Shown here in pieces: positions 1 to 25,482 of a DNA stretch of 64,000 nucleotides (position 1 is the first letter of the stretch; every line of letters starts with the position of its first letter). The DNA is from Nitrospirota bacterium (GTDB lineage: Bacteria; Nitrospirota; UBA9217). The stretch lies in assembly GCA_963840455.1 (NCBI GenBank), contig CAWIYV010000011.1:533066-597065 (forward strand), given 5' to 3'. The notes under the pieces were generated by a model that did not search any database, was not told where the DNA came from, and worked only from the letters and a program-made list of their open reading frames with translations. The translations under genes and the position numbers were made by a program.

Positions 1-112
1 GCAGGATCTCTTCGTATCGGAACCATGGCATGACCTCCTTACGACCCTTTCCGACAGCCTCGGTTTTTCTCTAAGCGTCTATGCACAGACGGGAAGACTT
101 ATCTTCGCTCCG

Positions 113-2002
113 TTGACCGAGCATTCACAATGCGGTAGTTTCCTCGCAACCTCACCCGGCCTCGAATCTCAGTGCAAAGTATACTGCCATCCCCGCATCA
201 TGAACGTTCTCGCAACGGGCAAGCCTGACGTCTATAAATGCCTCGCAAAGATCATATGCTTTGCACTCCCCGTCGAATACCTGGGGGAAAAAGCGGTGAT
301 CCTGGGGCGCGGGTCCTTCTCCTCGTATGAGGATTTCCGCGAATACATGAATCTCGCGACAGCCGGTGGCGTAGACGCGATCGCGATAAGAGCGCCGCTC
401 ACGTTCACCAGCCAAGAGCAGGCGTGGAAAGTATGTCGTTTTGTTCATGATACGGTGAACCGGTCCCTCCTAAACATGCAGGAGACCGCGGCACTGAGAA
501 AGAAGTTCGATAGTCTCATGAGCGTCTTCTCGCTGTGGGGCTCTGCTACCGTGGAGCAGCCCGAAATGCGGTACCAGGACATGCTCTATAATCTTTCAAC
601 GCTGCTTGACATCAATCATATCACCATCCTCGCTCTCGATCGGGAGGCGGGCAGATATACCGGTCTGTACGGCATCTCCAAGAGCGGAGCCCCGACCGAG
701 GCGATCACCATCGACGAGAATGACACCGTCGTCAAAGAGCTGCTCAGCGGAAAACCATATATTCGCACCATGACACAGGTTGCCGGACCGTCCTCCAAAG
801 CGCCTGCCGACCGCGAGTCCCGGTTTCTTTTCCCGATCCTGGTGAACAAGACCCTGGGGGGGATCCTCTGCATCACCAACCAGATCCTTCTCGATCGAGA
901 CCGGCAGATCATCGCCGGATTCTGCAAGCAGACCGCGCTTTTCATAGAGAACTATCACTTGCACCAGGACCTCTATAAAAAGTTCAACCGGTTCGCCTTG
1001 ATGTCGGAGCTAAACCGGGCGATAACGCCGATCCAGAACTATGACACACTTCTCCAGATGATCCTTGACAAGTCCGCCGAGCTGCTGAAGGCGGAGCAGG
1101 GATCGCTCATGATGCTCGACCAGAAGACCGACGCCCTGCTCCTCGAAGCGAAGAAAGGCATCATTCAGGGAGTCTCGGGGAAGATCAGCATCCAGCGCGG
1201 CGTGGGAATCGCCGGCAGAGTGGCAGAACGCGGCGAACCCTACCTGGTGAAGGACCTCGAGGACGATCCGCGTATCAAGCAGAAGAACCGGAATCATTAC
1301 CGGACCCGGTCGTTCGTCAGCGTGCCGCTCAAGATCGCAGACCGGGTCATCGGCGTGCTTAACCTGTCGGATAAGACGACCGGCGAGGTCTTCGACGAGG
1401 AGGACCTGAAGCTCATCCAGTCCATTGCGACCCACGCCGCCGTCGTCGTGGAGCGGAACGAATTTTATGCAAAATCGGAGGAGCTCAAGAAGTTGACGAT
1501 CACCGATACCCTGACCGGCCTCTTGAACCGCAGATACCTGCAAGAACGGCTCAAAGACGAACTGGCGCGGTCGGAGCGGCATATCCACCCGATGAGCCTT
1601 CTCATGCTAGACCTGGACGGATTCAAATCCTGCAATGATAGCGAAGGGCACCTCGTGGGCGACAAGATTCTTCAGGAGGTAGCCGAGACCTTATTGAAGA
1701 CGGTGCGGTCCATGGACATCGTGGCACGGTATGGCGGGGACGAGTTTATGGTGATCCTGCCGGAAACCGGCGAGCCGGTTGCAATCGAGATCGGTGAGCG
1801 CCTACGCAACAGCGTGTCCACGGGTACAGCGTGGACCCGGAAAGCGGGTTCGGGTCTGGAGCCCTGTTCCTTGACGGCCAGCATCGGCATTGTCTGTTAT
1901 CCGGAGCACGGAGAGACCGGCGAACTCCTGCTCGAGAACGTTGATAAAGCGCTGTACCGCGCCAAGAACAAGGGGAAGAACAGGATCGAGGTATTCTCTT
2001 AG
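113..2002 (+). CDS. GAF-domain diguanylate cyclase (GGDEF)
   Basis: 629-aa ORF. C-terminal GGDEF active-site motif RYGGDEFMVIL, with an upstream region of GAF-like composition. The stop at 2000-2002 directly abuts the next gene. Confidence 0.85.
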   Translation: MTEHSQCGSFLATSPGLESQCKVYCHPRIMNVLATGKPDVYKCLAKIICFALPVEYLGEKAVILGRGSFSSYEDFREYMNLATAGGVDAIAIRAPLTFTSQEQAWKVCRFVHDTVNRSLLNMQETAALRKKFDSLMSVFSLWGSATVEQPEMRYQDMLYNLSTLLDINHITILALDREAGRYTGLYGISKSGAPTEAITIDENDTVVKELLSGKPYIRTMTQVAGPSSKAPADRESRFLFPILVNKTLGGILCITNQILLDRDRQIIAGFCKQTALFIENYHLHQDLYKKFNRFALMSELNRAITPIQNYDTLLQMILDKSAELLKAEQGSLMMLDQKTDALLLEAKKGIIQGVSGKISIQRGVGIAGRVAERGEPYLVKDLEDDPRIKQKNRNHYRTRSFVSVPLKIADRVIGVLNLSDKTTGEVFDEEDLKLIQSIATHAAVVVERNEFYAKSEELKKLTITDTLTGLLNRRYLQERLKDELARSERHIHPMSLLMLDLDGFKSCNDSEGHLVGDKILQEVAETLLKTVRSMDIVARYGGDEFMVILPETGEPVAIEIGERLRNSVSTGTAWTRKAGSGLEPCSLTASIGIVCYPEHGETGELLLENVDKALYRAKNKGKNRIEVFS

Positions 2003-2003
2003 C

Positions 2004-3674
2004 ATGCTATTCAGCTCACTCCCGGAAAAGGATTTCGTCGGCAAACAGGAAGAGCTGGACGGGCTCACGAAGCGGATCGTCCTTGCGCACGGAAGCCAGG
2101 CCAGGAGCGCGGTTCTGTCAGGCCCCCGGGGCATGGGGAAGACGGAGCTGCTCAAGCAGCTTTTCGGGCGCCTGTTCTGGGGGCATGACCGCGTCGCCCC
2201 GTTCTTTTATGCGGCCAGTCCGGCGGTGCTGTCCGCGAAAGCCTTTTCCCGCACCTATCTGGTCCAGTTCCTGTCCCAGAGGCTCGCGTATCAGAAAAAG
2301 GAACAGGCCCTTCTCTACCATGACGGGATTTCGATCGATGATATAGCGACGCTCGCGGAGGAGCGGGGGGCGACGTGGGCAAGGGACATCCTTGACCGCT
2401 ATGAACGGAGCGCCTCTGAACCTCTCGATGCGCTGCGCATTGCCCTCAATGCTCCCCACCTGTCAGTGCTGGCCACCGGGACGCCGGTAGCGGTCCTGAT
2501 CGATGAGTTTCAGCGGCTCAAAGGCATCACGATCGAAGGGAACCCCGACCCCAAGCTGGTCTCTCTCTTCGAAGAGCCGATGGCTTCCGGGAAAACGCCC
2601 CATCTGATCTCCGGGAACGATCCGGAGATCCAGGAAATGGCCGTTGCGCAAGGCCTTGAACGGATACCCGTCCAGCCGCTGGGAGCCGAGAGCGCAATGT
2701 CGAGGGCTCGCGCGCTCCTCGCTGTGCATGGGGCCGAAGGCACCATACCCCATCTTCTCCTGCGGCATCTCGGCGGCAATCCCTTTTACCTGGCGTGTGT
2801 CATACGGACGGCATGTGCGAAGAAGGTCCTTGACGAGAAGGATTTCTGGAATGCCTATGTCCGGGAGATCATGGAAGGTCCTCTCTCGCTCTCGTGGTCC
2901 GCTGTCCTCAAGGACTTTTTCCCGGACCTGGAGGTGCGCAGGGCCGCCCTCGCAATGGCCTTCATGATGTGCCACGCGGCGGACCCCCACCCCCGCCGAT
3001 GGTTCGCAAAATCCCTTGGGCTGACAGACGCTCAGGTGAGCGCCACGGCGCACTCCTTGTATCTCGCCGGTCTCATCCGCGGGGAGTTCGGTGTATTCAG
3101 GGCAACGGAAGACCGGGTCGTCCGGGATATCCTTGAGGAGCTCTACCAGAAGGAGATCCTCGCAAAGTCCCGCCATGAACGGGAACGGCTCTTCCTTGAA
3201 TCATTGCTCCCGCAAAAGGAGAACGCCGTTCACTTTGAAATGACCATCCCCATGGTCAAGGAATCAGAGCTTGTCGTCGCGCAATGTCTCGAGCAGATCG
3301 GCAAGAACCTCCAACTCAACGAGGACGCCATAGGACAGATGCAGATAGCCGTGATCGAGGCATGCATCAACGCCATAGAACATGGCAAGGGAATGGATAA
3401 TAAGGTCCGGATAGTCGTTGCCGTGGAGATGGGCCGCCTTGAGGTATCGATCGAAAGCGCTGGGCCGGAGTTCATCGTGCAGGAGACCGGCGAGCCGTTT
3501 GGCGACCAGGCGGCTGCGAAGGCGTCGGGCAGAGGATGGGGCGTAAAGCTCATGAAACGCTTTGCCGATGAGGTCGTGTTCGAAAGGACCGCCCAGGGTA
3601 CGCGGACGGTCCTTATTAAAAATCTTGGAACATCCACTGGTGCGCGGAAGGAGGATACGGCAAATCGTGAGTAA
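2004..3674 (+). CDS. AAA/STAND-like NTPase fused to an RsbW/SpoIIAB-type anti-sigma serine kinase (GHKL ATPase)
   Basis: ATG at 2004 lies 2 nt after the upstream stop. N-terminal Walker A GPRGMGKTELL and Walker B VAVLIDEF. C-terminal IAVIEACINAIEHG...GRGWGVKLMKRFADEV is typical of HATPase_c anti-sigma kinases. Confidence 0.75.
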   Translation: MLFSSLPEKDFVGKQEELDGLTKRIVLAHGSQARSAVLSGPRGMGKTELLKQLFGRLFWGHDRVAPFFYAASPAVLSAKAFSRTYLVQFLSQRLAYQKKEQALLYHDGISIDDIATLAEERGATWARDILDRYERSASEPLDALRIALNAPHLSVLATGTPVAVLIDEFQRLKGITIEGNPDPKLVSLFEEPMASGKTPHLISGNDPEIQEMAVAQGLERIPVQPLGAESAMSRARALLAVHGAEGTIPHLLLRHLGGNPFYLACVIRTACAKKVLDEKDFWNAYVREIMEGPLSLSWSAVLKDFFPDLEVRRAALAMAFMMCHAADPHPRRWFAKSLGLTDAQVSATAHSLYLAGLIRGEFGVFRATEDRVVRDILEELYQKEILAKSRHERERLFLESLLPQKENAVHFEMTIPMVKESELVVAQCLEQIGKNLQLNEDAIGQMQIAVIEACINAIEHGKGMDNKVRIVVAVEMGRLEVSIESAGPEFIVQETGEPFGDQAAAKASGRGWGVKLMKRFADEVVFERTAQGTRTVLIKNLGTSTGARKEDTANRE

Positions 3675-3714
3675 TTTTTCGTTGTCATCAAAATCAACAA
3701 AGGACGCGGTCGTC

Positions 3715-4032
3715 ATGATGCCCAAAGGGTACATCAATGACATGGGAGCGGTGAGCCTGGAGCAGACAAGCGAACAGCTCCTCGGGAAGGGTGCAAAAAC
3801 GCTCATCGTGAATTTCGCCGACGTCCAATATATAAACACCATCGGGGTCTCCATTTTTACCGGCATGGTTCATAAGACACAGGAACACAACAGCGTGCTC
3901 TGCTTTACCAATTTGAAGAAGGTCCACCGGGATGTATTTGAGATGATGGGCCTGATAAAGCACGTAAAGGTGTTTAACAACGAAGAGGACGCCCTGAGGT
4001 CCTTGAGGCGAAAGGAGAGCAATGCTGAATAA
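3715..4032 (+). CDS. STAS-domain anti-sigma factor antagonist (RsbV/SpoIIAA-like)
   Basis: ~105-aa product with a STAS-like pattern (TLIVNFADVQYINTIGVSIF). AGGA lies ~10 nt upstream of the ATG. The gene sits immediately downstream of the RsbW-like kinase. Confidence 0.75.
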   Translation: MMPKGYINDMGAVSLEQTSEQLLGKGAKTLIVNFADVQYINTIGVSIFTGMVHKTQEHNSVLCFTNLKKVHRDVFEMMGLIKHVKVFNNEEDALRSLRRKESNAE

Positions 4033-5245
4033 GAAACTGGATCTCAAGCGGTTGCTGTTCAGCATGGCGTCACTGGTCGACCTGGGACAGGAAGCGACCT
4101 CCTCGAAGGACCTCAGTGCGAAAATGAAGGCGGCGCTCTACGTCATCACGGGCATGTTTTCCGTGCCGACGGCGGCCCTGTTCGTGTACCACCCTCAGCG
4201 AAAACTTCTCCGGCTCTTCGTCGAAAAAGGGCGCCGGGTCAGGGAACGGCAAGTCAAAGGGCTTCCCCTCCTTCCGGAGCACATCAAGCGATTCCGGATG
4301 AATGATCCGCATACGCTTCGCGACATGGCAGAGAGCGCCTTCTTTGTCCGGAATAAGGAGGTGTTCAGCGATCTGCAGACAACGATCTTTCTTCCCCTTT
4401 TTGCTAAAGGCGATTTCGTCGGCGCCATCGCGCTCGGCCAGAAGCTGGGGAGAGCACCCTTCCGCCAAGGGGAAAAGGACGTCCTCCGGGTGATCGCGCA
4501 TCAAATGGCGATAACCCTTCACAATGCGCGGCTGTTCCTGGAGGTGGCCAAAAAGGCCGCGGAAAACAAAAAACTCTATTCCAGCATGCAGCAGATCTAC
4601 CAGGACACCATTCAGGCCTTTGCTACCGCGATCGACGCCAAGGACGAGTATACCAAGGACCATTCTTACCGGGTGGCCAGCTATGCCGTCGCGATCGCGC
4701 GCGAGCTCGGCTGGAAAAAGAAGGATGTCGAGGGCATCTATATCGCCGGCCTTCTCCATGACATCGGGAAGATCATTATTGATGTCAAGGTCATCAATAA
4801 GGGAGCAACACTTTCGACCCCTGAGTTGACGGAGATCAGAAAGCATCCTCAGATATCGTACGATATCCTGTCAAAGATCAGGTTCCCGTGGAAAAATATC
4901 GAGAACTTCGTCCGGCACCACCATGAGCGCATGGACGGGAAAGGGTATCCCGATTCACTGAAGGAGGCGGAATTGAGCGATGGCGTAAAGATCCTCGCGC
5001 TGGTAGACGCCTTTGACGCCATGACATCAGACCGGCCATACCGGGACAAGCTTCCTGTCAGCGAGGCATTGAAGGAAGTAATGCGGTGCAAAGGGACCCA
5101 GTTCGACACCAAGATCACGAACACGTTCTTCAATGTCCTGCGCAAGGAACTGAACGGCGAGGTCAAAGAACCCCATATCCTTCCTCATTTGCATAGCCTG
5201 GACAGCAGCAAGTTCAAGGCACTTTCATCGAATTCCGCCAGGTGA
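4022..5245 (+). CDS. GAF-domain HD-GYP phosphodiesterase (c-di-GMP hydrolysis)
   Basis: HD motif LLHDIGK and HHERMDGKGYP (HD-GYP) in the C-terminal half, with a GAF-like N-terminal half. AAGGAG RBS. Start overlaps the STAS gene stop. Confidence 0.85.
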   Translation: MLNKKLDLKRLLFSMASLVDLGQEATSSKDLSAKMKAALYVITGMFSVPTAALFVYHPQRKLLRLFVEKGRRVRERQVKGLPLLPEHIKRFRMNDPHTLRDMAESAFFVRNKEVFSDLQTTIFLPLFAKGDFVGAIALGQKLGRAPFRQGEKDVLRVIAHQMAITLHNARLFLEVAKKAAENKKLYSSMQQIYQDTIQAFATAIDAKDEYTKDHSYRVASYAVAIARELGWKKKDVEGIYIAGLLHDIGKIIIDVKVINKGATLSTPELTEIRKHPQISYDILSKIRFPWKNIENFVRHHHERMDGKGYPDSLKEAELSDGVKILALVDAFDAMTSDRPYRDKLPVSEALKEVMRCKGTQFDTKITNTFFNVLRKELNGEVKEPHILPHLHSLDSSKFKALSSNSAR

Positions 5246-5723
5246 TCAGCGCATCGGGTCGCTCTTCCGTAGGTCGTTTCAATATCAATGGTGCAGGATC
5301 ATTTCTGGCAGCGCCTTCTTCGGCGCTGCCGTGCACAGCTGGCGCAATGCCTCCCGCCATCCTGCATATCACGATCAGTTCCTCACTGAGCCCGGTCCTT
5401 TACCCCTGTCTGCGGTCCTTCGCGTCGCTCAGAGCCTGTCCTGAGCATAGCGAAGATGGCTGTCCGCCTCGCTCTGCAACCGCTTGTCCTGAATCCTGTC
5501 TGTTTTTTTCCATGAACCACGCCTCCAGGCACTCTCCTGCCCCCTGATATTGTCACCGTATAAGAGTACAGGTCCGGCCATTCGAAAATCGAATACCCAC
5601 CCTCCGAGAATCATACAACGGCCTGACACACGGGGCGTATTTCCTGATGATGCATGCTCCCCGCTGGAGCACAACATCCTGTTCCTGAACGTTTTTTTTC
5701 ATCGCACGCAATACGGCGCCTTC

Positions 5724-5739
5724 TGGCACGGACAATGCA
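5724..5739 (+). promoter_or_regulatory. candidate sigma-54 (-24/-12) promoter TGGCACGGACAATGCA
   Basis: GG and GC dinucleotides separated by exactly 10 nt, in a TGGCAC-N5-xTGCA context. Lies ~50 bp upstream of the PP2C gene start at 5787. A sigma-54-dependent activator gene is present in the window (15596..16942). Confidence 0.4.
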
Positions 5740-5786
5740 ATCTATCAGACCAGTAGTACGGAAAAAATCAGCTTTGGGGGTGCCTC

Positions 5787-6695
5787 ATGATGCAACGGAT
5801 CGCCAATTTCGTCAGAGCGCTCTTCGGAATGGAGACATCCTGGAGCATCATGACTCTTTCCCGCGTCGGGATCGATCCGGTCACCGCGCGCTCTCTGACA
5901 CAGGTGCTCCAGCCCGCACACACGATACGGCTGAGACCGGAACCGGCGGAGGAAGACCCTGCAGCCGGCGTCCCCGGGCTTCTTTGGCACGGGATCACCG
6001 ACACCGGCCTCGTGAGAGACCATAATGAGGACAGCTTTTCGCTCCTCGATCTGGGGAACCGTGCGCTGTTCGTCGTGGCCGACGGCATGGGCGGCCATGA
6101 TGCCGGCGAAGTGGCGAGCCGCATCGCCGTTGATGCGGTGCGCCGGGAAGTACGCAACAACACCATGCCTTACGAGGCCCCCCTCATGACCGTTGAACGG
6201 GCGGTTCAGCAGGCAAATGCGGAGGTCAGGCGCGAAGCAGCGCGCAAGGGATCGAACATGGGCACGACGCTCTGCGTAGCGCTCGTAACCGACGGCGCGG
6301 CATATATCGGCAGCGTGGGGGACAGCAGGGCCTACTGGATGGAGAACGGTTCCATCTCCCAGATCACCGAGGACCACTCCCTGGTGGCGAAGCTGGTGGC
6401 AGCCGGGAAGTTGTCACAACAGGAGGCCAGGAACCACCCCCGGTCCAACCTGCTCTACCGCACCATCGGGACCGACGAAACGGTCAAGGCCGGCATGTTC
6501 CGGGTCGAACTGAAGAAAGGCGGCACGCTCCTGCTCTGCACTGACGGGCTCTGGGGGGATGTGGATGAGGAAGAGATCCGCAGGATCTGCACCGAAGAGC
6601 CGTATACCGAGATCGTTTGCGCCAGGCTGGTACAGCGTGCGAACGCGAACGGCGGCAAGGACAACATCACCGCAGTGGTGGTTAAGGTCCTCTGA
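5787..6695 (+). CDS. PP2C-family Ser/Thr protein phosphatase
   Basis: Motifs VVADGMGGHDAGEVAS, GTTL and TDGLW...GGKDNITAVVV. A ~70-aa N-terminal extension precedes the catalytic domain, so the true start may be internal. Confidence 0.85.
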   Translation: MMQRIANFVRALFGMETSWSIMTLSRVGIDPVTARSLTQVLQPAHTIRLRPEPAEEDPAAGVPGLLWHGITDTGLVRDHNEDSFSLLDLGNRALFVVADGMGGHDAGEVASRIAVDAVRREVRNNTMPYEAPLMTVERAVQQANAEVRREAARKGSNMGTTLCVALVTDGAAYIGSVGDSRAYWMENGSISQITEDHSLVAKLVAAGKLSQQEARNHPRSNLLYRTIGTDETVKAGMFRVELKKGGTLLLCTDGLWGDVDEEEIRRICTEEPYTEIVCARLVQRANANGGKDNITAVVVKVL

Positions 6696-6768
6696 TGGCG
6701 AAGCCCCGCGCATGGCTCCTGGAATGAATGAAATACAAGGTCCAACGTTGTAAAAGGAGGTACAGAAC

Positions 6769-8019
6769 ATGAAGAACGAACTGAACATCCGATGCGTCAT
6801 GAGCAAGGATGCGCTGACGGTGACCGGGGCGGAGCAGGCGGTCTATGCGCTCGTGGATATCAAGGCGGTGAGCAGCGGACAGCACCGCACCATGCCGGCG
6901 AACTTCGGCCTGGTGCTCGACCGGAGCGGCTCCATGGACGGCGAGAAGATGGAGAATCTGAAGGAGGCAGCGGGCTACGTGGTGGACCACTTGAATGATA
7001 ACGACCTCGTTTCCGTTACGGTCTTCGATGACCAGGTCGAGACGATTATCCCGAACCAGCCCCTGAAGGACCGCGAAGAGGTCAAGTCCCGGCTCGGATC
7101 GGTCATCCCCCGCGGCGGCACCCAGATCTCGGACGGGCTCAAGGCCGGTCTGGCGGAGGCCTGGAAGGGATTCTCCAAGGACCGCGTAAACCGCATACTC
7201 CTGCTCACCGACGGCCAGACGTGGGACGATGAGGCCGCGTGCCTCACGCTCGCCGACGAGGCAGGAAGAAAGGGCATCGCCGTTACGAGCATCGGCATCG
7301 GCGATGAGTGGAATGAGAAGCTCCTGCTCCAGCTCGCCGAGCGCTCTCACGGCAATTCGCACTGGATCCAGAATCCCATCGCCATCCTCGACGCGTTCCG
7401 GCAGGAGGTCGAGGGGGCGCAATCTGTCGCGGCAACGAACCTCAGCATGACGGCGCGCATGAGCCCGGGAGTCAAACCGGTGAAGGCATACGCCACCATG
7501 CCCATGATCTCCGACATGAGCACGAAGGCCGTGAACGGTCAGAACATCATGGCCGACCTGGGCTCCCTGGACAGCAGGCGGGGACAGGCAATGCTCATTG
7601 AAGTGCGAGTACCGCCCCAAAAGGCCGGCAAATTCCGGCTGGGCCAGGTAGAGGTCACCTATGACGTGCCCTCCCGGGGGATCAAGGGGCAAAGCGTCAA
7701 GGCGGACCTGTTCGTCATGTTCACTGATGACGCCGCAGCCGCGGCAAAGGTGAACGCCGAGGCGATGAACCTCGTTGAGAAGGTGAGCGCTTTCAAGCTC
7801 CAGACCCGGGCGCTCACCGAGGCCGAGGCGGGCAATATCGCCGCAGCGACGCAGAAGCTTCAGTCCGCTGCCACGGTACTTCTGAACCTGGGCGAGGACG
7901 AGCTCGCCGAGGCGGCGGAGAAGGAGATCCTGTCGCTCAAGAGGACCGGGGCCTTCACCGCAGCAGGGACGAAGAAGCTCGAATACGGCACCCGAAAACT
8001 GACGCAGGCATTGAAATAA
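6769..8019 (+). CDS. von Willebrand factor type A (vWA) domain protein
   Basis: MIDAS motif LVLDRSGSMDG, plus ILLLTDGQTWDDE. Strong AGGAGG RBS before the ATG. The C-terminal half is helical and low-complexity. Confidence 0.8.
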   Translation: MKNELNIRCVMSKDALTVTGAEQAVYALVDIKAVSSGQHRTMPANFGLVLDRSGSMDGEKMENLKEAAGYVVDHLNDNDLVSVTVFDDQVETIIPNQPLKDREEVKSRLGSVIPRGGTQISDGLKAGLAEAWKGFSKDRVNRILLLTDGQTWDDEAACLTLADEAGRKGIAVTSIGIGDEWNEKLLLQLAERSHGNSHWIQNPIAILDAFRQEVEGAQSVAATNLSMTARMSPGVKPVKAYATMPMISDMSTKAVNGQNIMADLGSLDSRRGQAMLIEVRVPPQKAGKFRLGQVEVTYDVPSRGIKGQSVKADLFVMFTDDAAAAAKVNAEAMNLVEKVSAFKLQTRALTEAEAGNIAAATQKLQSAATVLLNLGEDELAEAAEKEILSLKRTGAFTAAGTKKLEYGTRKLTQALK

Positions 8020-8110
8020 TTGCATAGGGCAGAGAGATGACCGCAATGGCTTGAACGCCATGCTCTCTGCGCCATGCGCTATGCATGATCCTAAAAAGGA
8101 GGACATACCC

Positions 8111-8554
8111 ATGAAATGCACAGAGTGTCAGACGGAGTACATCGAAGGCGCGCTCTTCTGCGAGGAATGCGGGGCGAAGATCGGGACCGCGAGTCAACTG
8201 ATTGACGCTGCAGGAACAATGGCCGATAAAGGGACGGCCCTGGTGCTCGCGTCCCCCGGCGGCGGTACGCTGGACATCCCGGACAAGGACGAAGTGGTCA
8301 TCGGCAGGGAAGACCCCATCAGCGAGGTGTTCCCCGACGTGGACCTGACAGACCTCGGCGGCATGGAGAACGGTGTATCGCGCAAGCACGCGGTCATCCA
8401 TCGGTCAGGAACGGACTATACCGTTGAGGACATGGGCTCCACGAACGGGACCTATATCAATAAAAAACGCATCCAGCCCCATGTGCCGCAGGCGATCAAG
8501 GCCGGCGACGAGGTCAGGTTCGGCAAACTGGCATTCTCGCTCGAGGCGGCATAA
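8111..8554 (+). CDS. zinc-ribbon plus FHA domain protein
   Basis: N-terminal CTECQ...FCEECGAK zinc ribbon. C-terminal FHA pattern (VVIGRED...GVSRKHAVI...STNGTYIN...VRFG). AAGGAGG RBS before the ATG at 8111; the ORF is open further upstream but without an RBS. Confidence 0.75.
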   Translation: MKCTECQTEYIEGALFCEECGAKIGTASQLIDAAGTMADKGTALVLASPGGGTLDIPDKDEVVIGREDPISEVFPDVDLTDLGGMENGVSRKHAVIHRSGTDYTVEDMGSTNGTYINKKRIQPHVPQAIKAGDEVRFGKLAFSLEAA

Positions 8555-8665
8555 CGCGAATGCAGAGCGCGGAATTCGGAGTGCGGAGTGATGAATCTAA
8601 AGAAGGAACCTGTTCTTATTCCGCATTCCGCACTCACCATTCCGCATTATGAAACGGAGGTACCA

Positions 8666-10918
8666 ATGCCCAGGCTCACTTATAAGACACTCGTCTACGG
8701 CGCGGCAGGGGCTTTCGGCGGATCAGCCGCCTGGGCCTTTGTCCTGGCCTTGTCCCAGACCATGCGCAGCGGTCTCCTGACCGAGATAGCGCTCGGCTCG
8801 ATCGTGGGCATGTTCATCGGCGGGTTCGTCTGGAGCCACGAGGCCATTACCGGAAGGCAGTTCCGCACCGCGCTCGAGCGCGCGGCCTTCGGCGCTCTGG
8901 CCGGCATCCTGGGCGGAGGGCTCGGCGCGGGTCAAGGCAATACGGTCTTTTCCGCACTCGGACGATACGTAGCGAACCTGGGCGGGTTCCGCGCGTCCCT
9001 GGGCATTGCCCTCTCCGTGGCCCTGGGATGGGCGGTCCTGGGGGCCGCGATCGGCATCAGCGGCGGCTTAATGGTCCGCTCCCGCTCGCGCGCCTGGTAC
9101 GGCCTGGCCGGCGGATCCCTGGGAGGATTTCTCGGAGGCTTTCTGTTCAATGCCCTCTCGACAACGAACGTCTGGTCGGCCCTGGCAGGTCTTACCCTGC
9201 TCGGGCTTTCCATCGGCGCTTTCATCAGTCTCGTCGAGGAAGCCTTTGTCTCGGCAAAGGTGAAAGTGATCAAGGGACGGCACCTGGGCAGGGAGTTCCC
9301 GCTCCTCAAGGAACTGAGCGTCATCGGCCGCGATGACCGCTCAGATGTCTGTCTTTCCGGCGCCGAAGGCGTAGCGAACCAGCACGCAGGCATCCGGCGG
9401 AACAACGGCCATTTCATCATCGAGACCGACGAAGAGGGAAAACCCGTGTACGTGAACCAGAAGATGACGCGGAACAGCAGGCTCGCCGATGGCGATGTCA
9501 TCCGCGTGGGCAGCATCCTGCTCATGTTCTCGGCGGTCAGGAAAGCAGTGGCGATCGCAGCCGTGACCGTCATGCTGTGCCTCTCCGTGGTGGCAGGGAG
9601 TACGGCACTGGCGGCCGGACCCGCATCAGCCCAGATCACCCAGTTCGACCTGAGCGGTTTCCCGACAGTGAAGATGTATGTTTCCGTACTTGATGCGGAC
9701 GGCAACCCGGTCCGCGGCCTGAGCAAGGAAGCGGTGACGCTCAGCGAGAACGGACGCCCCGTCGCGGTGGACGCGATGCAGATGACCGGGACGAAAGTCA
9801 CGCGCGAGCCCTTGAGCCTTGCCATTGTGGTGGACCGGAGCGAGTCCATGACCGGCGAAAAAATCGAACACGCCAGGGAATCGGTCGACCGTTTTCTTTC
9901 GCTCATGCAGCAGGGAGACCGGGCAGCCCTCATCGCCTTCAGCGATTCCATCGTGAAGCTCGAATCACTGACTGACAACATCGGACTTCTCAGGCAGGCG
10001 ACGGCCGCCATCCGGCCCGGCGGGCACACTGCGCTCTACGATGCCGTGGTTGCCGGCGTGGCCTCGGTCCAGGGAGTACCGGGCAGGCGGGCAGTGATCG
10101 TCCTGACCGACGGGATCGCCAACCGCGGCTCCCTCGACATCGACCAGGCAATCGCCGCAGCTGCTAAAGAGTACGTCTCAGTCTCCGTCATCGGCCTGGG
10201 CAAGGACGTCCGGGCATCTCGGCTCGAGCGGATCGCCATAGAGACCGGGGGCTCCTACTTTTTTACGCCCTCCGCCGTCGGACTGATGGATATCTACGAT
10301 ACCATCGGCAACAGGATCCGGAACGAGTACGCCGTCACCTTCGTGACCGAAAAGCGGGCTGCATACCTCCGTAACCTTTGGCTCACCCTTGCTTCAGGCC
10401 AACATGCAACACGCTCCTATTTCCAGCCCCAGTCCTCGCTCTTCGGTGCCGGTAGCATGCTGCCCCCATGGGCCTTTGCCGTCCCTCTTGCGAGCATACT
10501 GGGGCTTGTGGCCGTCTCGCTCCGCAGGGTGGAGCGGTACTACGAGACCGGCCATCTGAGCCTCGTGCGCGGCACGGGCACGAAGAAGGACATCAATATC
10601 AATTCCCGTGTGACCATTGGAAGGGACGAGCGTAATACCCTCGGCCTCTTCAAGGACAGCGGCATCGACCAGCGGCACGCCGAGGTCGTCCGGGAGAGCG
10701 GCAAATATATTATCGAGGACAAGGGTTCTGCTGCCGGGACCTACGTGAACAAGACCCGCGTCGCGGGCAGGCAGGCGCTTCAGGACGGCGACGTCATCAC
10801 CATGGGCAACGCCACCATCATATTCAGCGAGGAGACCAGGCCGACCTGTCCTGACTGCGGCGGCGCCCTGAGGCCGAAGGCGAAGTTCTGCGCCAAGTGT
10901 GGAGCGAAACAGGCTTAG
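8666..10918 (+). CDS. large membrane protein with Gly-zipper TM segments, FHA, vWA, second FHA and a C-terminal double zinc ribbon
   Basis: GGAGG RBS before the ATG at 8666. Domain order read from the translation: a Gly/Ala-rich TM block, FHA-like (SVIGRDDRSDVCL...VANQHAGI...VIRVG), another TM segment, vWA MIDAS (LAIVVDRSESMTG...VIVLTDG), a further TM segment, a second FHA (VTIGRDERNTL...RHAEV...GTYVNKTRV), then CPDCGG...FCAKCGAK. Confidence 0.75.
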   Translation: MPRLTYKTLVYGAAGAFGGSAAWAFVLALSQTMRSGLLTEIALGSIVGMFIGGFVWSHEAITGRQFRTALERAAFGALAGILGGGLGAGQGNTVFSALGRYVANLGGFRASLGIALSVALGWAVLGAAIGISGGLMVRSRSRAWYGLAGGSLGGFLGGFLFNALSTTNVWSALAGLTLLGLSIGAFISLVEEAFVSAKVKVIKGRHLGREFPLLKELSVIGRDDRSDVCLSGAEGVANQHAGIRRNNGHFIIETDEEGKPVYVNQKMTRNSRLADGDVIRVGSILLMFSAVRKAVAIAAVTVMLCLSVVAGSTALAAGPASAQITQFDLSGFPTVKMYVSVLDADGNPVRGLSKEAVTLSENGRPVAVDAMQMTGTKVTREPLSLAIVVDRSESMTGEKIEHARESVDRFLSLMQQGDRAALIAFSDSIVKLESLTDNIGLLRQATAAIRPGGHTALYDAVVAGVASVQGVPGRRAVIVLTDGIANRGSLDIDQAIAAAAKEYVSVSVIGLGKDVRASRLERIAIETGGSYFFTPSAVGLMDIYDTIGNRIRNEYAVTFVTEKRAAYLRNLWLTLASGQHATRSYFQPQSSLFGAGSMLPPWAFAVPLASILGLVAVSLRRVERYYETGHLSLVRGTGTKKDININSRVTIGRDERNTLGLFKDSGIDQRHAEVVRESGKYIIEDKGSAAGTYVNKTRVAGRQALQDGDVITMGNATIIFSEETRPTCPDCGGALRPKAKFCAKCGAKQA

Positions 10919-10935
10919 GGTAGGACCGATAACCC

Positions 10936-10964
10936 TTGACACGGACAAGGGCGGATCTTACATA
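10936..10964 (+). promoter_or_regulatory. candidate sigma-70 promoter (TTGACA-17-TACATA) for the kinase gene
   Basis: TTGACAcggacaagggcggatctTACATA lies ~110 bp upstream of the kinase start. Confidence 0.3.
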
Positions 10965-11075
10965 TGAAGAAGCATGATCAAAACTTTGCCCTATCAGCTC
11001 TTTTTTCAGGGTTCTGATCGGCCTCGATCAGCATCAAAGATCTTCTTTAAAGTGGCTATGTACGGAGGTCATACT

Positions 11076-12260
11076 ATGAGCCGGCTGCTGAAAAATAGAT
11101 ACGAGATCATCGGCCTCCTCGGTACGGGCGGGATGGGCTCTGTCTACAAGGTCGCTGACCGGGACTGGAAAGGCAGGATCCTGGCTGCCAAGGAGCTCCG
11201 TTCCGACGGGCTTTCTCTGGTGAAGGCGCAGGAGGCCCTCACCCAGTTCCAGACCGAAGCAAGGATCCTGGCGCGGCTCACGCACCCGAACCTTCCCAAG
11301 GTCTACGACTACTTCAGCTTGCCGGGAAGGCATTACATCATCATGGAATACGTGAAGGGAAAGACGCTGGAAGCGTTGCTTCGCAGCCGCAAGGGGCAGC
11401 CCGTGGATGAACGACTGGCCCTGTCCTGGGCGCTCCAGATCTGCCGGGCCATGCAGTTCCTGAGCGTCCAGAAGCCGCCCGTCGTGTTCCGCGACCTCAA
11501 GCCCTCAAACATCATGATCGAACCGGACGGCAAGGTCAAGTTGATCGATTTCGGCATCGCCCGGTTCTTCAAGGAGGATAAGCGGGAGGACACTTATGTG
11601 TACGGCACGCCGGGGTATGCTGCGCCCGAGCAGTACGGCACAGGCCAGACCAATGTGCGCTCCGACATCTTCTCCCTTGGCGCCACGCTCCACCACTGCC
11701 TTACTGGAAGGGATCCCTCGGAAAGCCCTCTCGAGTTTCCTGATGCTCGGTCGCTGAACCCAAATTTGAACAAGGGAACCTCCCGGATCCTCACGAAGGC
11801 GCTCGACCTGGAGATGGGCAGGCGGTACAAAACACCCCTCGATATGAAACGGGCGCTCCAGAGCGTGCTCCGGAACATCGAGATATTGCCGCGGGGTGTT
11901 GACAACGTCATCCATGCCGAGCCGGGAAAGCCCATCACGTTGCCGTGGTGGAAGAAGACCAGTTGGGTGAGCGTGCCGGTGATGGCACTCGGATGCAGCG
12001 GTACAACGGGTACGCTGTCGTCCGATGACCGTTGGCTCCATCCCAGGCCCAAGGCCTTCAGCCACGGTTCGTCGCAGCTTCTGTTCCGCGTCGACGGGGC
12101 AAAGCTCAGGATGGGAAGGGAGTACCACCCGCGGATCACCGTGTGCACCGATGCCGGCATTCTCCGGCCGCAGTTGTCCTTCAAGCGGCCATGGCCATGG
12201 ATGCTGATCGAAGCGGCGATCATTGCGGCGGCTCTAGCAGGGTTGTTCATGATAAGGTAA
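11076..12260 (+). CDS. Hanks-type Ser/Thr protein kinase with a C-terminal TM anchor
   Basis: Motifs GLLGTGGMGSVYK, HPNLPKVYDYF, FRDLKPSNIMI, KLIDFGIAR and GTPGYAAPEQ. GGAGG RBS 7 nt before the ATG at 11076. Hydrophobic C-terminus. Confidence 0.85.
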   Translation: MSRLLKNRYEIIGLLGTGGMGSVYKVADRDWKGRILAAKELRSDGLSLVKAQEALTQFQTEARILARLTHPNLPKVYDYFSLPGRHYIIMEYVKGKTLEALLRSRKGQPVDERLALSWALQICRAMQFLSVQKPPVVFRDLKPSNIMIEPDGKVKLIDFGIARFFKEDKREDTYVYGTPGYAAPEQYGTGQTNVRSDIFSLGATLHHCLTGRDPSESPLEFPDARSLNPNLNKGTSRILTKALDLEMGRRYKTPLDMKRALQSVLRNIEILPRGVDNVIHAEPGKPITLPWWKKTSWVSVPVMALGCSGTTGTLSSDDRWLHPRPKAFSHGSSQLLFRVDGAKLRMGREYHPRITVCTDAGILRPQLSFKRPWPWMLIEAAIIAAALAGLFMIR

Positions 12261-15595: not shown

Positions 15596-16942
<1,347 letters not shown>

Positions 16943-17545: not shown

Positions 17546-18307
17546 ATGAAGCTCATTACCTTCGGTGCGACCGACCCCGGAAGGAAGCGGGCCAACAACG
17601 AAGACGCCTATCTCCTTGATGACCGGCTGCGCCTGTACGCCGTTGCCGATGGGGTGGGCGGCGTCGAAGGCGGCGAGGTCGCGAGCCGGATCGCCGTGGA
17701 AACGCTAGGGGAGGCGATGCCGGACCTGCTCGGCGACAGGGACCGCACCCCGCCCGCCGGACGCTCTTCCGGCGAGGGGACGGAATTGACTGCGTTGCGC
17801 TCGGCGGTCTCCTTCGCCCACCGAACCATTCGCGCCGCAGTCGGGAAGGCGCCCGGTCTTGCCGACATGGGTACAACGCTCACGGCGCTACTGCTGGCGA
17901 ATAAACGAGCGTACCTGGTCCATATCGGGGACAGCCGGGCCTATCTCCTCCGTGCCGGCGAACTCACCCAAATAACGAACGACCACTCCGTCGTTGCGGA
18001 GCAGGTACGTGCGGGACGTCTCACGGCCGGAGAAGCGAAGACCAGCCCCTACCGCCACGTGATCACCCGGGCGCTCGGCATCGCCGAGGATGCCGCCCCC
18101 GACCTTGCGGAGCGGCCGATACAGAAGAACGACACGTTCCTGCTGTGCTCCGACGGCCTGACCGAGATGGTGGATGACGCCGGTATCAGGACGATCCTCT
18201 CCGGATTCCCTACCCGGGATGCAGTGAAAAAGCTGATCGACGCGGCGAACGGCAGGGGCGGCGTGGACAATATCACCGCTGTCGTGGTGCAGGTGCTGGA
18301 GATCTAG
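17546..18307 (+). CDS. PP2C-family Ser/Thr protein phosphatase
   Basis: YAVADGVGGVEGGEVAS, GTTL, CSDGL and GGVDNITAVVV. Start abuts the FHA gene stop. Confidence 0.85.
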   Translation: MKLITFGATDPGRKRANNEDAYLLDDRLRLYAVADGVGGVEGGEVASRIAVETLGEAMPDLLGDRDRTPPAGRSSGEGTELTALRSAVSFAHRTIRAAVGKAPGLADMGTTLTALLLANKRAYLVHIGDSRAYLLRAGELTQITNDHSVVAEQVRAGRLTAGEAKTSPYRHVITRALGIAEDAAPDLAERPIQKNDTFLLCSDGLTEMVDDAGIRTILSGFPTRDAVKKLIDAANGRGGVDNITAVVVQVLEI

Positions 18308-18584
18308 CTGCACAGAACAACGCCTCGTGGAAGCACGGGTCCCGGCACCGTTGGGATGCACAGATCAGAGAAGAGCTCTACATACGTTGACCACGGAGGC
18401 CACCGAGGACCCAGAGGAACGCGAAACACCTCTCGTCCGGGCTTTTTTCGGTGAGCTCTGTTATCTCAGCGGAAAAGATTCGCTTTTGTATCAAGGAATC
18501 ATCGTTCTTATTCGTGTTCCCGCGCACCTGCGGGACCGTGGTTAAGAGGCAGTGGTCCGGGCATCTCCCGATCAGGATGGCAGT

Positions 18585-19892
18585 ATGGCGATCCAGCAGC
18601 TCAAGGATGAATACGAGATCCAGGACGAGATCGGCTCAGGCGGCATGGCCACGGTGTACAAGGCTGTCCAGAAGTCCCTCGCCCGTCCGGTGGCGATCAA
18701 GCAGCTGAAGCGGTCCTACCACGCCGACGAGCAGATCGTCCGGCGCTTCGAGCGCGAGAGCAGGGTGGCCGCCTCGCTCCAGCACGAGAACATCGTCCAC
18801 ATCTACGACTACTGGAAAAAGCCGACGTACGCCATCGTGATGGAGTACGTTGATGGCGCCAACCTTGCCGACGTCATCGAGAAGACCGGCGCCCTGCCCG
18901 TTGACGTGGGCGTCATGATCTCCATCCAAGTGTGCAGCGCCCTGGAGTACGCCCACATGCGCGGACTCGTCCACCGCGATATCAAGCCGAGCAACATCAT
19001 GATCAAACGGAACGGCGAGGTCAAACTCATGGACTTCGGCATCGCCCACACCCGGCACCTTGACGCCCTCACCCTGCCCGGCACGCTCATCGGGACGCCG
19101 GCCTACATGTCACCTGAACAGATCCTCGGCCATCAGCTCGATGTCAGGTCTGACATCTTTTCTCTCGGCATCGTGTTGTACGAGATGTTCACCGGGGTCA
19201 AGCCTTTTGCCGACGACGAGAAGCGGCCGGTAACGGCAAAGATCGTGCATGATGACTTCCTCGCCCCCCGCCGCGTGAATGGAGACCTCCCCCGGCGGCT
19301 GCAGTGGCTCATCAAGAAGTGCCTCCGGAAGAAGCCGAAGCGGCGCTATGCTTCCATGCTGGAGGTCGAGCGCAAACTGGGAAAGCGGCTCGCGGGCAGA
19401 ACGACGAAGGCTGCCTCGCTCCAGCGGATCTCGGACTGCCTCGTCTCGCGCAAGGTCTTTGAGGCAGCGCCGGAACAGGATACGATGATTGTCCCGCCGG
19501 AAGCGAAGTTGTCTGGACGGCTCAAGGCGTCGATCGCGGCTGTTACAGCGCTCATCGTCCTGGCAGTAGGAGTAGGGCTCTACTATCAGCGGATGCGGAC
19601 AGACCAGGCAACGGTACGGCCTCCTGCTGCGCCGGCCACTCTGCCGTCAGCTGCCGGGCCGCCCCTGTCACGGCCCGTGGAGACCGCTCCGGCCCGCCTG
19701 CCAGCGCCGCTGGGTCAGGCTACCGGGACAGCGGGTACCCTCAGCCAACCGGCCCCGTCAACTCCTCCCTTGTCGGTCGAGCAGAGGAAAGAACCGACCG
19801 TCGAAAAAAAGACAGCCACGACCAAAAAGAAGAAGAAAAAGAAAGCGCCTCCCGCAACGACCAGCATGATAACCCCGCCCCCTTTAGCATGA
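18585..19892 (+). CDS. Hanks-type Ser/Thr protein kinase with a TM segment and a Pro/Ala/Thr-rich, poly-Lys C-terminal tail
   Basis: IGSGGMATVYKA, VAIKQL, HRDIKPSNIMI, DFGIAH and GTPAYMSPEQ. The first in-frame ATG is at 18552; 18585 gives MAIQQLKDEYEI directly before the kinase domain. Confidence 0.8.
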   Translation: MAIQQLKDEYEIQDEIGSGGMATVYKAVQKSLARPVAIKQLKRSYHADEQIVRRFERESRVAASLQHENIVHIYDYWKKPTYAIVMEYVDGANLADVIEKTGALPVDVGVMISIQVCSALEYAHMRGLVHRDIKPSNIMIKRNGEVKLMDFGIAHTRHLDALTLPGTLIGTPAYMSPEQILGHQLDVRSDIFSLGIVLYEMFTGVKPFADDEKRPVTAKIVHDDFLAPRRVNGDLPRRLQWLIKKCLRKKPKRRYASMLEVERKLGKRLAGRTTKAASLQRISDCLVSRKVFEAAPEQDTMIVPPEAKLSGRLKASIAAVTALIVLAVGVGLYYQRMRTDQATVRPPAAPATLPSAAGPPLSRPVETAPARLPAPLGQATGTAGTLSQPAPSTPPLSVEQRKEPTVEKKTATTKKKKKKKAPPATTSMITPPPLA

Positions 19893-24831: not shown

Positions 24832-25138
24832 GGCGGGGAGTATAACATAGTCGCCCGCAAGGGGAAAAGTAAAAAAACACGCCTGCCGTCACGCGCGCCC
24901 CGCTTCCCGTGCCTGGAGACCGGAAGGATTTCCCTTGACATAATACAGGATTTATATTATCTTCATTGACAGAAGAAACGCGGCATCTGCCGCAAGGCAT
25001 CATCCGCGAGAAGCGCCACAGGGGATAGCAGATGGGCAGGGAGACAGGCTCCCTGCCCGGTTTTTTCCGTGGTCGCGTAAAAAAGAAAAGGCAGGCCACC
25101 TGACGGTGAACCTGCCTTTATTGGTTGATGGGTGGTGC

Positions 25139-25339
25139 TCAGACCTTTACGACATTCGCTGCCTTCGGGCCCTTCGGGCTGTCTTCAATGTCGAACGTCA
25201 CTGCCTGACCTTCGGCCAGGGACTTGAAGCCAGCGTCCTGGATCGCAGAAAAGTGAACGAACACGTCTGCGCCGTCCTCTGCGGCAATGAATCCAAAACC
25301 CTTGGAGTCATTGAACCACTTCACGGTTCCTTTTGCCAT
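25139..25339 (-). CDS. cspA: cold-shock protein (CspA family)
   Basis: [18 protein letters not shown]...[10 protein letters not shown], ~66 aa. AAGGAGG RBS. The ORF track extends it upstream, but the conserved start is the internal M. Confidence 0.85.
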
Positions 25340-25390
25340 GTGTGCAGAACCTCCTTCCGTGAGAATTGAAGAAGCGGAAACGTGCGTCAC

Positions 25391-25420
25391 AAAAAAACCG
25401 CAAAGATGGGATCTTTGCGG
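25391..25420 (-). terminator. intrinsic-terminator-like hairpin between the cupin gene stop and the csp start
   Basis: Plus strand AAAAAAA-CCGCAAAGAT-ggg-ATCTTTGCGG. A minus-sense RNA gives a 10-bp stem then a U7 run. Lies ~60 nt after the cupin stop and ~55 nt before the csp ATG. Confidence 0.55.
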
Positions 25421-25482
25421 CCGCGTGAACGACAAAGACTTCCGAACTTCAGTGCCGATACTCGCATATCCCCCGGCCAAAG

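Follow-up and report, generated by a model that had tools for sequence, protein, structure and literature searches.

Partner switching and STAND NTPases are both well-understood switch designs, and the joining of the two in one protein has not previously been described. The reference partner-switching systems of Bacillus pair a GHKL-fold kinase of about 140-160 residues, RsbW or SpoIIAB, with a STAS-domain protein, RsbV or SpoIIAA. In two further partner-switch modules a diguanylate cyclase is the target of the switch protein: HsbA, a STAS protein, interacts with HsbD in the HptB-HsbR-HsbA-HsbD system of Pseudomonas aeruginosa (PMC5085249), and SiaC activates SiaD in the SiaABCD system (PMC8457831). 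CapK, a multidomain RsbW-like kinase, phosphorylates a STAS protein and has an output other than a sigma factor (EMBO J 2026, PMC13373217). STAND NTPases follow the principle that the ADP form is closed and changes into an ATP form which is open and multimerises (PMC6468293). Here we describe a gene from a Nitrospirota bacterium which encodes a STAND-like NTPase module fused to an RsbW-like kinase domain. The gene occupies positions 2004..3674 of a stretch of 64,000 nucleotides (contig CAWIYV010000011.1, positions 533,066 to 597,065 of the forward strand), which is referred to below as the window, and it is part of a cassette with genes for a diguanylate cyclase, a STAS protein and an HD-GYP phosphodiesterase of cyclic di-GMP (c-di-GMP). 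We consider the chances to be about even that the fusion protein is the kinase of a sigma-independent partner-switching module within a c-di-GMP operon.

The fusion is encoded by one open reading frame (ORF) of 556 codons on the plus strand, with ATG at 2004, TAA at 3672-3674 and zero internal stops. The longest possible ORF would begin at TTG 1890; the start was assigned to ATG 2004 because the upstream GGDEF gene stops at 2002 and because M1 is invariant across 33 homologues (alignment A1). The earlier note on this DNA had read the frame as continuous, and had named a hidden stop or a frameshift as what might split it. Neither was found. In an independent metagenome-assembled genome (MAG), contig JAAXXJ010000023.1 (L002) matches the fusion gene with 95.9% nucleotide identity over 1671/1671 nucleotides and 0 gaps, and more than 100 homologous sequences from ENA, JGI, NCBI and Logan assemblies, 58-99% identical, have lengths of 552-561 residues; homologues of about 556 residues number more than 120. 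That an assembly or sequencing artefact joined a separate ATPase gene to a small RsbW gene is therefore next to impossible: the frame is intact in the independent MAG, the same length recurs across hundreds of assemblies from differing sources, and the AlphaFold2 model of the protein shows an unbroken helical linker between the two parts. Together with the scan of species genomes described below, the alignment and the same-length homologues refute the artefact. The MAG contig and the window gene differ synonymously in 45 codons and non-synonymously in 22, with differences in both halves, and selection appears to act on both halves of the fusion protein. The window protein is thus confirmed as a genuine single-chain fusion of an NTPase module and an RsbW-like kinase domain.

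The fusion is neither rare nor a one-off: it is a widespread, undescribed family. When 1.84 billion cluster representatives were searched exhaustively with HMMER, 1177 clusters passed E<=1e-3; 373 passed E<=1e-10 and 99 passed E<=1e-30 (clusters at 50% identity). Relatives are encoded in 414 species genomes, according to a scan in which each GTDB species was represented by one genome. The best 80 of these 414 belong to Nitrospirota, which carry a short form, and to Sumerlaeota and the Pyrinomonadaceae/Blastocatellia of the Acidobacteriota, which carry a long form. The short form, to which the window protein belongs, has about 550 residues; the long form, with 720-830, has an insertion after the winged helix and before the kinase, made up of a long helix and an alpha/beta domain of ~160 residues. 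Neither Pfam nor the PDB sequences gave a match for this extra domain, and a fold search with the long-form model was dominated by NTPase and kinase matches. No description of the NTPase-RsbW kinase architecture was found in the full-text literature or in curated families, where every NCBIfam model remained far from its cut-off, so the impression of the earlier note that the architecture is not commonly described holds in that sense, but not in the sense of rarity. In the source annotations the homologues are simply an "ATP-binding protein" or an "RsbW/anti-sigma regulatory factor", and the latter labels likely mislead regulon predictions in the genomes that carry them. Nitrospirota, Acidobacteriota and Sumerlaeota are environmentally important phyla whose signalling is almost unstudied. 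Two cassettes 57-65% identical to those of Nitrospirota (L005 and L019) come from an assembly named "Betaproteobacteria bacterium MAG281" (JBLMWN01), which suggests mis-binning or mislabelling and not a true presence in Betaproteobacteria.

The C-terminal domain is where the resemblance to the Bacillus kinases lies. Pfam HATPase_c_2 matched residues 425-539 with 60.1 bits (cut-off 27.4, E 2.9e-16), RsbW (6m36, E 2.3e-9) and also SpoIIAB came up when PDB sequences were searched with a profile, and Foldseek aligned the modelled domain with SpoIIAB (1th8, 1l0o, 1til) and RsbW (6m36, 6m37), with template modelling (TM) scores of 0.72-0.90 on the target. An RsbW-type domain is thus present as the earlier note had claimed, but the fold boundaries in the model are residues ~409-540 and not ~440-560. 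Among the conserved features of the domain, the N-box residues E452 and N456 do not vary in 33 homologues and are at least 90% conserved in 57, the G2 box GRGWG occurs in 31/33 homologues, and the ETGEP lid segment is nearly invariant among close homologues. The window protein is like RsbW and SpoIIAB in the GHKL fold, in the N-box and the G2 box, and in having directly downstream a STAS gene with a Ser/Thr at the acceptor position. Unlike them, it is four times larger, carries an N-terminal NTPase module of about 400 residues, has no linked sigma factor, has Ser in place of the G1-box Asp, and scores under the curated RsbW/SpoIIAB cut-offs.

The start of the STAS gene overlaps the 3' end of the kinase gene by 8 nucleotides. 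In an alignment of 74 STAS sequences, from the window and the related loci, 71 cover the putative acceptor site and the other three are truncated fragments. The motif (I/V)N(T/S)(I/V)G is present in 71/71 of the site-covering sequences, at the place where SpoIIAA and RsbV bear the phosphorylated Ser; the acceptor is Thr in close relatives and Ser in distant ones.

The four genes follow one another in the order GGDEF cyclase, NTPase-kinase, STAS and HD-GYP phosphodiesterase. The cyclase stop and the kinase ATG are 1 nucleotide apart, and the 8-nucleotide overlap of kinase and STAS is followed by an 11-nucleotide overlap of the STAS and HD-GYP genes. Both c-di-GMP enzymes have intact motifs: in the cyclase, GGDEF at 1733-1747 and, five residues ahead of it, an RxxD I-site (RSMD), and in the phosphodiesterase, HD (LLHDIGK) and HHHERMDGKGYP (pattern HHExxDGxGYP). 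To see how far this order extends, 81 related loci were searched with the window neighbours, and arrangements were counted on gene end coordinates in those loci that had enough flank. The STAS gene lies directly downstream of the kinase in 67/74 loci, the HD-GYP gene is next after STAS in 57/65, a homologous cyclase is directly upstream of the kinase in 61/69, and all three are there in 43/58. In Sumerlaeota and Acidobacteriota, where protein identity is down to 25-30%, the arrangement persists, and it is therefore conserved across three phyla, Nitrospirota, Acidobacteriota and Sumerlaeota. The triad of kinase, STAS and (GAF)HD-GYP also appears in further distant members, including L082 and L085, for which independent gene calls and precomputed Pfam labels were used. 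The HD-GYP phosphodiesterase is the most constant neighbour of the STAS protein.

The linkage of kinase, STAS and cyclase genes recalls the HsbA-HsbD type of module, a likeness that concerns the genes only. The architectures differ: HsbR is a REC-PP2C-kinase protein, and SiaB and SiaC are unrelated in architecture. A P-loop module is absent from the Hsb and Sia systems alike, and neither of them has both a cyclase and an HD-GYP phosphodiesterase as flanking genes. CapK/CapS is similar in another respect, namely in having a multidomain RsbW-like GHKL kinase that is regulated by way of extra N-terminal domains and phosphorylates a STAS-domain partner. Unlike the protein described here, CapK has the organization HTH-STAS-GHKL and is switched on by single-stranded DNA, and the output is a transcriptional repressor of defence operons (PMC13373217); the CapK/CapS system has neither an NTPase module nor c-di-GMP genes.

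Variants of the arrangement were also encountered. One divergent clade of Nitrospirota has, in the slot of the cyclase, genes for a Cache-PAS histidine kinase, a response regulator and a DSP-type (dual-specificity) phosphatase (L045, 4223-7809), and this phosphatase is a candidate for the enzyme that dephosphorylates the STAS protein. On the Aridibacter sp. chromosome OZ244151.1 (L062, 5692-11065), a PocR-GAF-GGDEF gene and a long-form kinase gene are followed by an AlkZ-related gene and not by STAS and HD-GYP, and at another locus (L081) STAS and HD-GYP are found as a pair some 5 kb downstream.

The similarity of the C-terminal domain to RsbW and SpoIIAB, its closest matches in both sequence and structure, raises the question of whether the protein is a classical anti-sigma factor, in which the GHKL domain would sequester an unlinked alternative sigma factor, the STAS protein would act as antagonist and the c-di-GMP genes would be merely co-regulated. 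In a few relatives, for example L001, a sigma-70-family gene does lie about 1.3 kb upstream of the cassette. With a single RpoD/RpoS-like query, however, which divergent extracytoplasmic function (ECF) sigmas could escape, no more than about 8/81 loci had such a gene in the vicinity, and none was found in the window. On the strength of this query, a linked sigma factor was rejected as a conserved feature. The GGDEF and HD-GYP neighbours, by contrast, are conserved across phyla, and the NCBIfam RsbW/SpoIIAB equivalog models were not reached by the window protein, with scores far under their cut-offs (NF003144, 34.8 bits against 145; TIGR01924, 28.8 against 155; TIGR01925, 28.7 against 135). We regard the classical anti-sigma function as rather unlikely. 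The designation "anti-sigma" kinase in the earlier note is therefore apt for the fold and not for the genomic setting, which in most loci consists of GGDEF and HD-GYP genes.

The N-terminal module was characterized by domain searches and by the structural model. Pfam AAA_16 matched residues 11-173 with 35.9 bits (cut-off 32.6, E 1.3e-8) and AAA_22 with 30.4 bits (cut-off 27). For ATPase_2 (PF01637) the window protein remained under the cut-off of 33.2 with 26.9 bits, while two relatives exceeded it (L045 with 45.5 and P0138 with 37.8 bits). The AlphaFold2 model, built from 57 diverse homologues, has a predicted local distance difference test (pLDDT) value of 86 and a predicted TM score (pTM) of 0.70; its only low-confidence parts are the ATP-lid loop 493-508 and the tail 543-556. 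It comprises five parts: a Rossmann-like nucleotide-binding domain (NBD), a helical lid, a winged helix, a two-helix linker and the alpha/beta GHKL domain. In a Foldseek search of the PDB with the N-terminal ~400 residues, the matches included Orc1/Cdc6 (2qby_A, E 8e-8) and the archaeal PF01637 ATPases PABY2304 (2qen, TM 0.65 on the target, the best solved structural match) and SSO1545 (2fna), as well as the NB-ARC of the plant NLRs NRC3, NRC4 and ZAR1 and CED-4; those to NRC3, ZAR1, CED-4, Orc1/Cdc6 and PABY2304 extend over ~400-440 columns. Judging by the model, the NBD, helical domain and winged helix form one nucleotide-binding oligomerisation domain (NOD) core. The order that the earlier note had read from the letters, a P-loop NTPase of STAND/AAA_16 type, a helical middle and an RsbW/SpoIIAB-type GHKL domain, is borne out by Pfam, AlphaFold2 and Foldseek alike; AAA_16 and HATPase_c_2 both exceed their Pfam cut-offs on the same protein, and the GPRGMGKT and hhhhDE motifs are present as Walker A and Walker B (Table 1).

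Both Walker motifs are intact in the window protein. Two residues, G45 and D167, never vary across the 57 diverse members of the short form, and conservation of G40, G43 and K46 is 90% or higher; in the GGNP motif of the lid, P260 is invariant and G258 nearly so. By its place in the lid, GGNP may be the counterpart of the GxP motif in the helical domain of STAND and Orc-type proteins. With its Walker A and B motifs and its modelled tripartite core of NBD, lid and winged helix, the module is like the STAND NTPases (MalT, PH0952, Apaf-1/CED-4, plant NLR NB-ARC), and it is like Orc1/Cdc6 and the archaeal PF01637 ATPases in that these are the best structural matches of the modelled residues 1-~400. 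Unlike STAND NTPases and PF01637 ATPases, it has no TPR, WD40 or LRR sensor and no DUF234: neither Pfam nor the model revealed any repeat-type sensor in the window protein, the sole extra domain being the kinase. No described example of a STAND-type core with a C-terminal protein kinase was found in the literature, and if our proposal is correct, this would be the first STAND core with a protein kinase as effector.

The likeness of the N-terminal module to NLR NB-ARC, the presence of Avs3 among the fold matches of the long form, and weak nSTAND1 or NACHT matches in some members would also suit a STAND-type anti-phage or conflict sensor (Avs/NLR-like), with the kinase domain as effector. This we consider very improbable, and a defence system was rejected as a candidate. 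PADLOC yielded trivial P-loop matches only and no significant one (the best, with E 0.004, covers a P-loop segment of ~27 residues), a domain of sensor repeats is absent, the genes alongside encode c-di-GMP enzymes and not toxins or nucleases, and the signalling context is syntenic and vertically conserved over whole phyla.

Table 1. Positions of the genes, domains and motifs discussed in the text (window coordinates unless another sequence is named).
Feature	Position	Strand	Basis or remark
PocR-like/GAF/GGDEF diguanylate cyclase, 629 aa	113..2002	+	Pfam GGDEF 164 bits, GAF_2 85 bits
NTPase-kinase fusion gene, 556 aa	2004..3674	+	ORF, Pfam AAA_16 and HATPase_c_2, AlphaFold2 model, homologues
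Nucleotide-binding domain, residues 1-225	2004..2678	+	model strands 36-39, 65-70, 162-167, 200-202, 219-222
Walker A GPRGMGKT	2121-2144	+	motif read
Walker B AVLIDE	2490-2507	+	motif read
Helical lid, residues 228-305	2685..2918	+	model helices 228-305
GGNP motif in lid, residues 257-260	2772-2783	+	conserved
Winged helix, residues 309-367	2928..3104	+	model: three helices and beta-hairpin 358-367
Two-helix linker, residues 371-401	3114..3206	+	model; extra ~200 aa domain here in long-form relatives
RsbW/SpoIIAB-like GHKL domain, residues 409-540	3228..3623	+	Pfam HATPase_c_2, PDB profile match, Foldseek
N-box EACIN	3357-3371	+	motif read
Atypical G1 box ESAG	3453-3464	+	motif read
G2 box GRGWG	3528-3542	+	motif read
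Single-domain STAS protein, 121 aa, GTG start	3667..4032	+	Pfam STAS 44.7 bits; orthologues align from residue 1
Putative phospho-acceptor Thr58, motif INTIG	3838-3840	+	motif read
GAF-like/HD-GYP c-di-GMP phosphodiesterase, 407 aa	4022..5245	+	Pfam HD_5 119 bits
PP2C gene	5787-6695		followed by vWA, FHA, FHA-vWA-FHA and Hanks-kinase genes
Extra domain of the long form	P0138 residues ~406-606; loci L054-L081		Acidobacteriota, Sumerlaeota; conserved Trp residues, confident AlphaFold2 fold

By analogy with the described systems, the proposed partner-switching module might work as follows. The GHKL domain would bind the STAS protein and phosphorylate Thr58, as RsbW and SpoIIAB do with their partners. 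The N-terminal NOD-like module would serve as an ADP/ATP switch, whose opening or oligomerisation gates the dimerisation or the accessibility of the kinase; this part of the proposal is drawn from the STAND principle (PMC6468293). The phosphorylation state of the STAS protein would decide its binding to the HD-GYP phosphodiesterase and/or the cyclase, and this binding would tip c-di-GMP turnover towards synthesis or towards degradation. The resetting phosphatase would be encoded outside the conserved cassette. If the proposal is correct, it would represent a new form of control, in which both the synthesis and the breakdown of c-di-GMP are governed by one phospho-switch.

Several points weigh against this proposal. 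Gene linkage reports a functional association, neither its direction nor its mechanism. Either enzyme may be the target, since one Nitrospirota clade (the L045 type) is without the cyclase, and in some Pyrinomonadaceae only the cyclase and the kinase are left adjacent. No dedicated phosphatase is conserved in the cassette. In the N-terminal module, Walker A is degenerate in a minority of the family (GTSE, GASE, GRTE), and the second Walker B residue varies (E, D, N, H), being non-acidic in a minority. From these variants we conclude that NTP hydrolysis cannot be essential throughout the family, and the variation would fit a nucleotide-binding switch better than a motor.

The remaining point concerns the G1 box of the kinase domain. 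The G1-box Asp of GHKL enzymes contacts adenine. In HMM alignments, Ser485 of the window protein falls on this Asp of RsbW ("ADEGDSF") and SpoIIAB ("RDEGVGI"); at this position 32/33 close homologues have Ser, 24/30 long-form members have Asn and 5/29 diverse short-form members have Asp. The DxGxG pattern of the box is not satisfied either, as the sequence is ESAGPE, with the second Gly missing. Since Ser or Asn replaces the Asp, canonical ATP binding and phosphotransfer by the kinase domain is not assured. The domain could accordingly be a pseudokinase scaffold, which has lost phosphate transfer with the G1 Asp and only binds the STAS protein reversibly, leaving the NTPase module as the nucleotide-dependent step. 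Non-phosphorylating RsbW-type proteins exist, for example mycobacterial UsfX, and structures 8ih8 and 8jzt were among the fold matches. Against a scaffold stands the near-invariance of the N-box Glu/Asn, the G2 box and, among close homologues, the ETGEP lid segment, together with the retention of Asp in a few family members. Furthermore, the STAS acceptor Ser/Thr is kept in every complete orthologue, including the partners of Ser- or Asn-type kinases, which argues indirectly that phospho-control has been retained. On balance, a pseudokinase seems to us unlikely, and we continue to favour a phosphorylating kinase in the partner-switching module.

It is tempting to speculate on what the altered pocket might recognize. 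Ser and Asn are able to donate a hydrogen bond, and to our knowledge, all canonical kinases have the adenine-specific Asp at this position of the GHKL pocket. The cassette might be a self-contained c-di-GMP homeostat, in which the STAND-like module or the GHKL pocket reads GTP or c-di-GMP, besides or instead of ATP. The kinase would then sense the substrate or product pool, phosphorylation of the STAS protein would reciprocally switch the cyclase and the HD-GYP enzyme, and STAND-type oligomerisation might make the response sharp and possibly bistable. We hold this to be a long shot. The Asp-to-Ser/Asn change in the pocket also offers a natural test of nucleotide specificity for this class of kinases.

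Beyond the cassette, about 540 nucleotides without a recognisable gene (5246-5786) separate the HD-GYP gene from the PP2C gene at 5787. A promoter and terminator scan of positions 1-6000 gave matches no better than the shuffled expectation, among them one weak promoter-like site at 5623-5651. The PP2C gene was considered as the conserved cognate phosphatase of the cassette and rejected, as it travels with the vWA/FHA/Hanks-kinase cluster and adjoins the cassette only in the closest relatives; it probably belongs to that other module. This part of the window (5787-12260, 15596-16942 on the minus strand, and 17546-19892) is a dense neighbourhood of Ser/Thr phospho-signalling genes, with the PP2C, a vWA protein, a Zn-ribbon/FHA protein, a membrane FHA-vWA-FHA protein and a Hanks kinase, and further along an FHA-sigma54 activator followed by a second PP2C and a second Hanks kinase. 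Finally, an Rfam match to the cspA thermoregulator (84 bits, cut-off 78) was obtained at 25086-25478 on the minus strand. It overlies a CspA-like cold-shock gene (~25139-25340, minus strand) and its leader, and probably owes most of its score to the conserved coding sequence.

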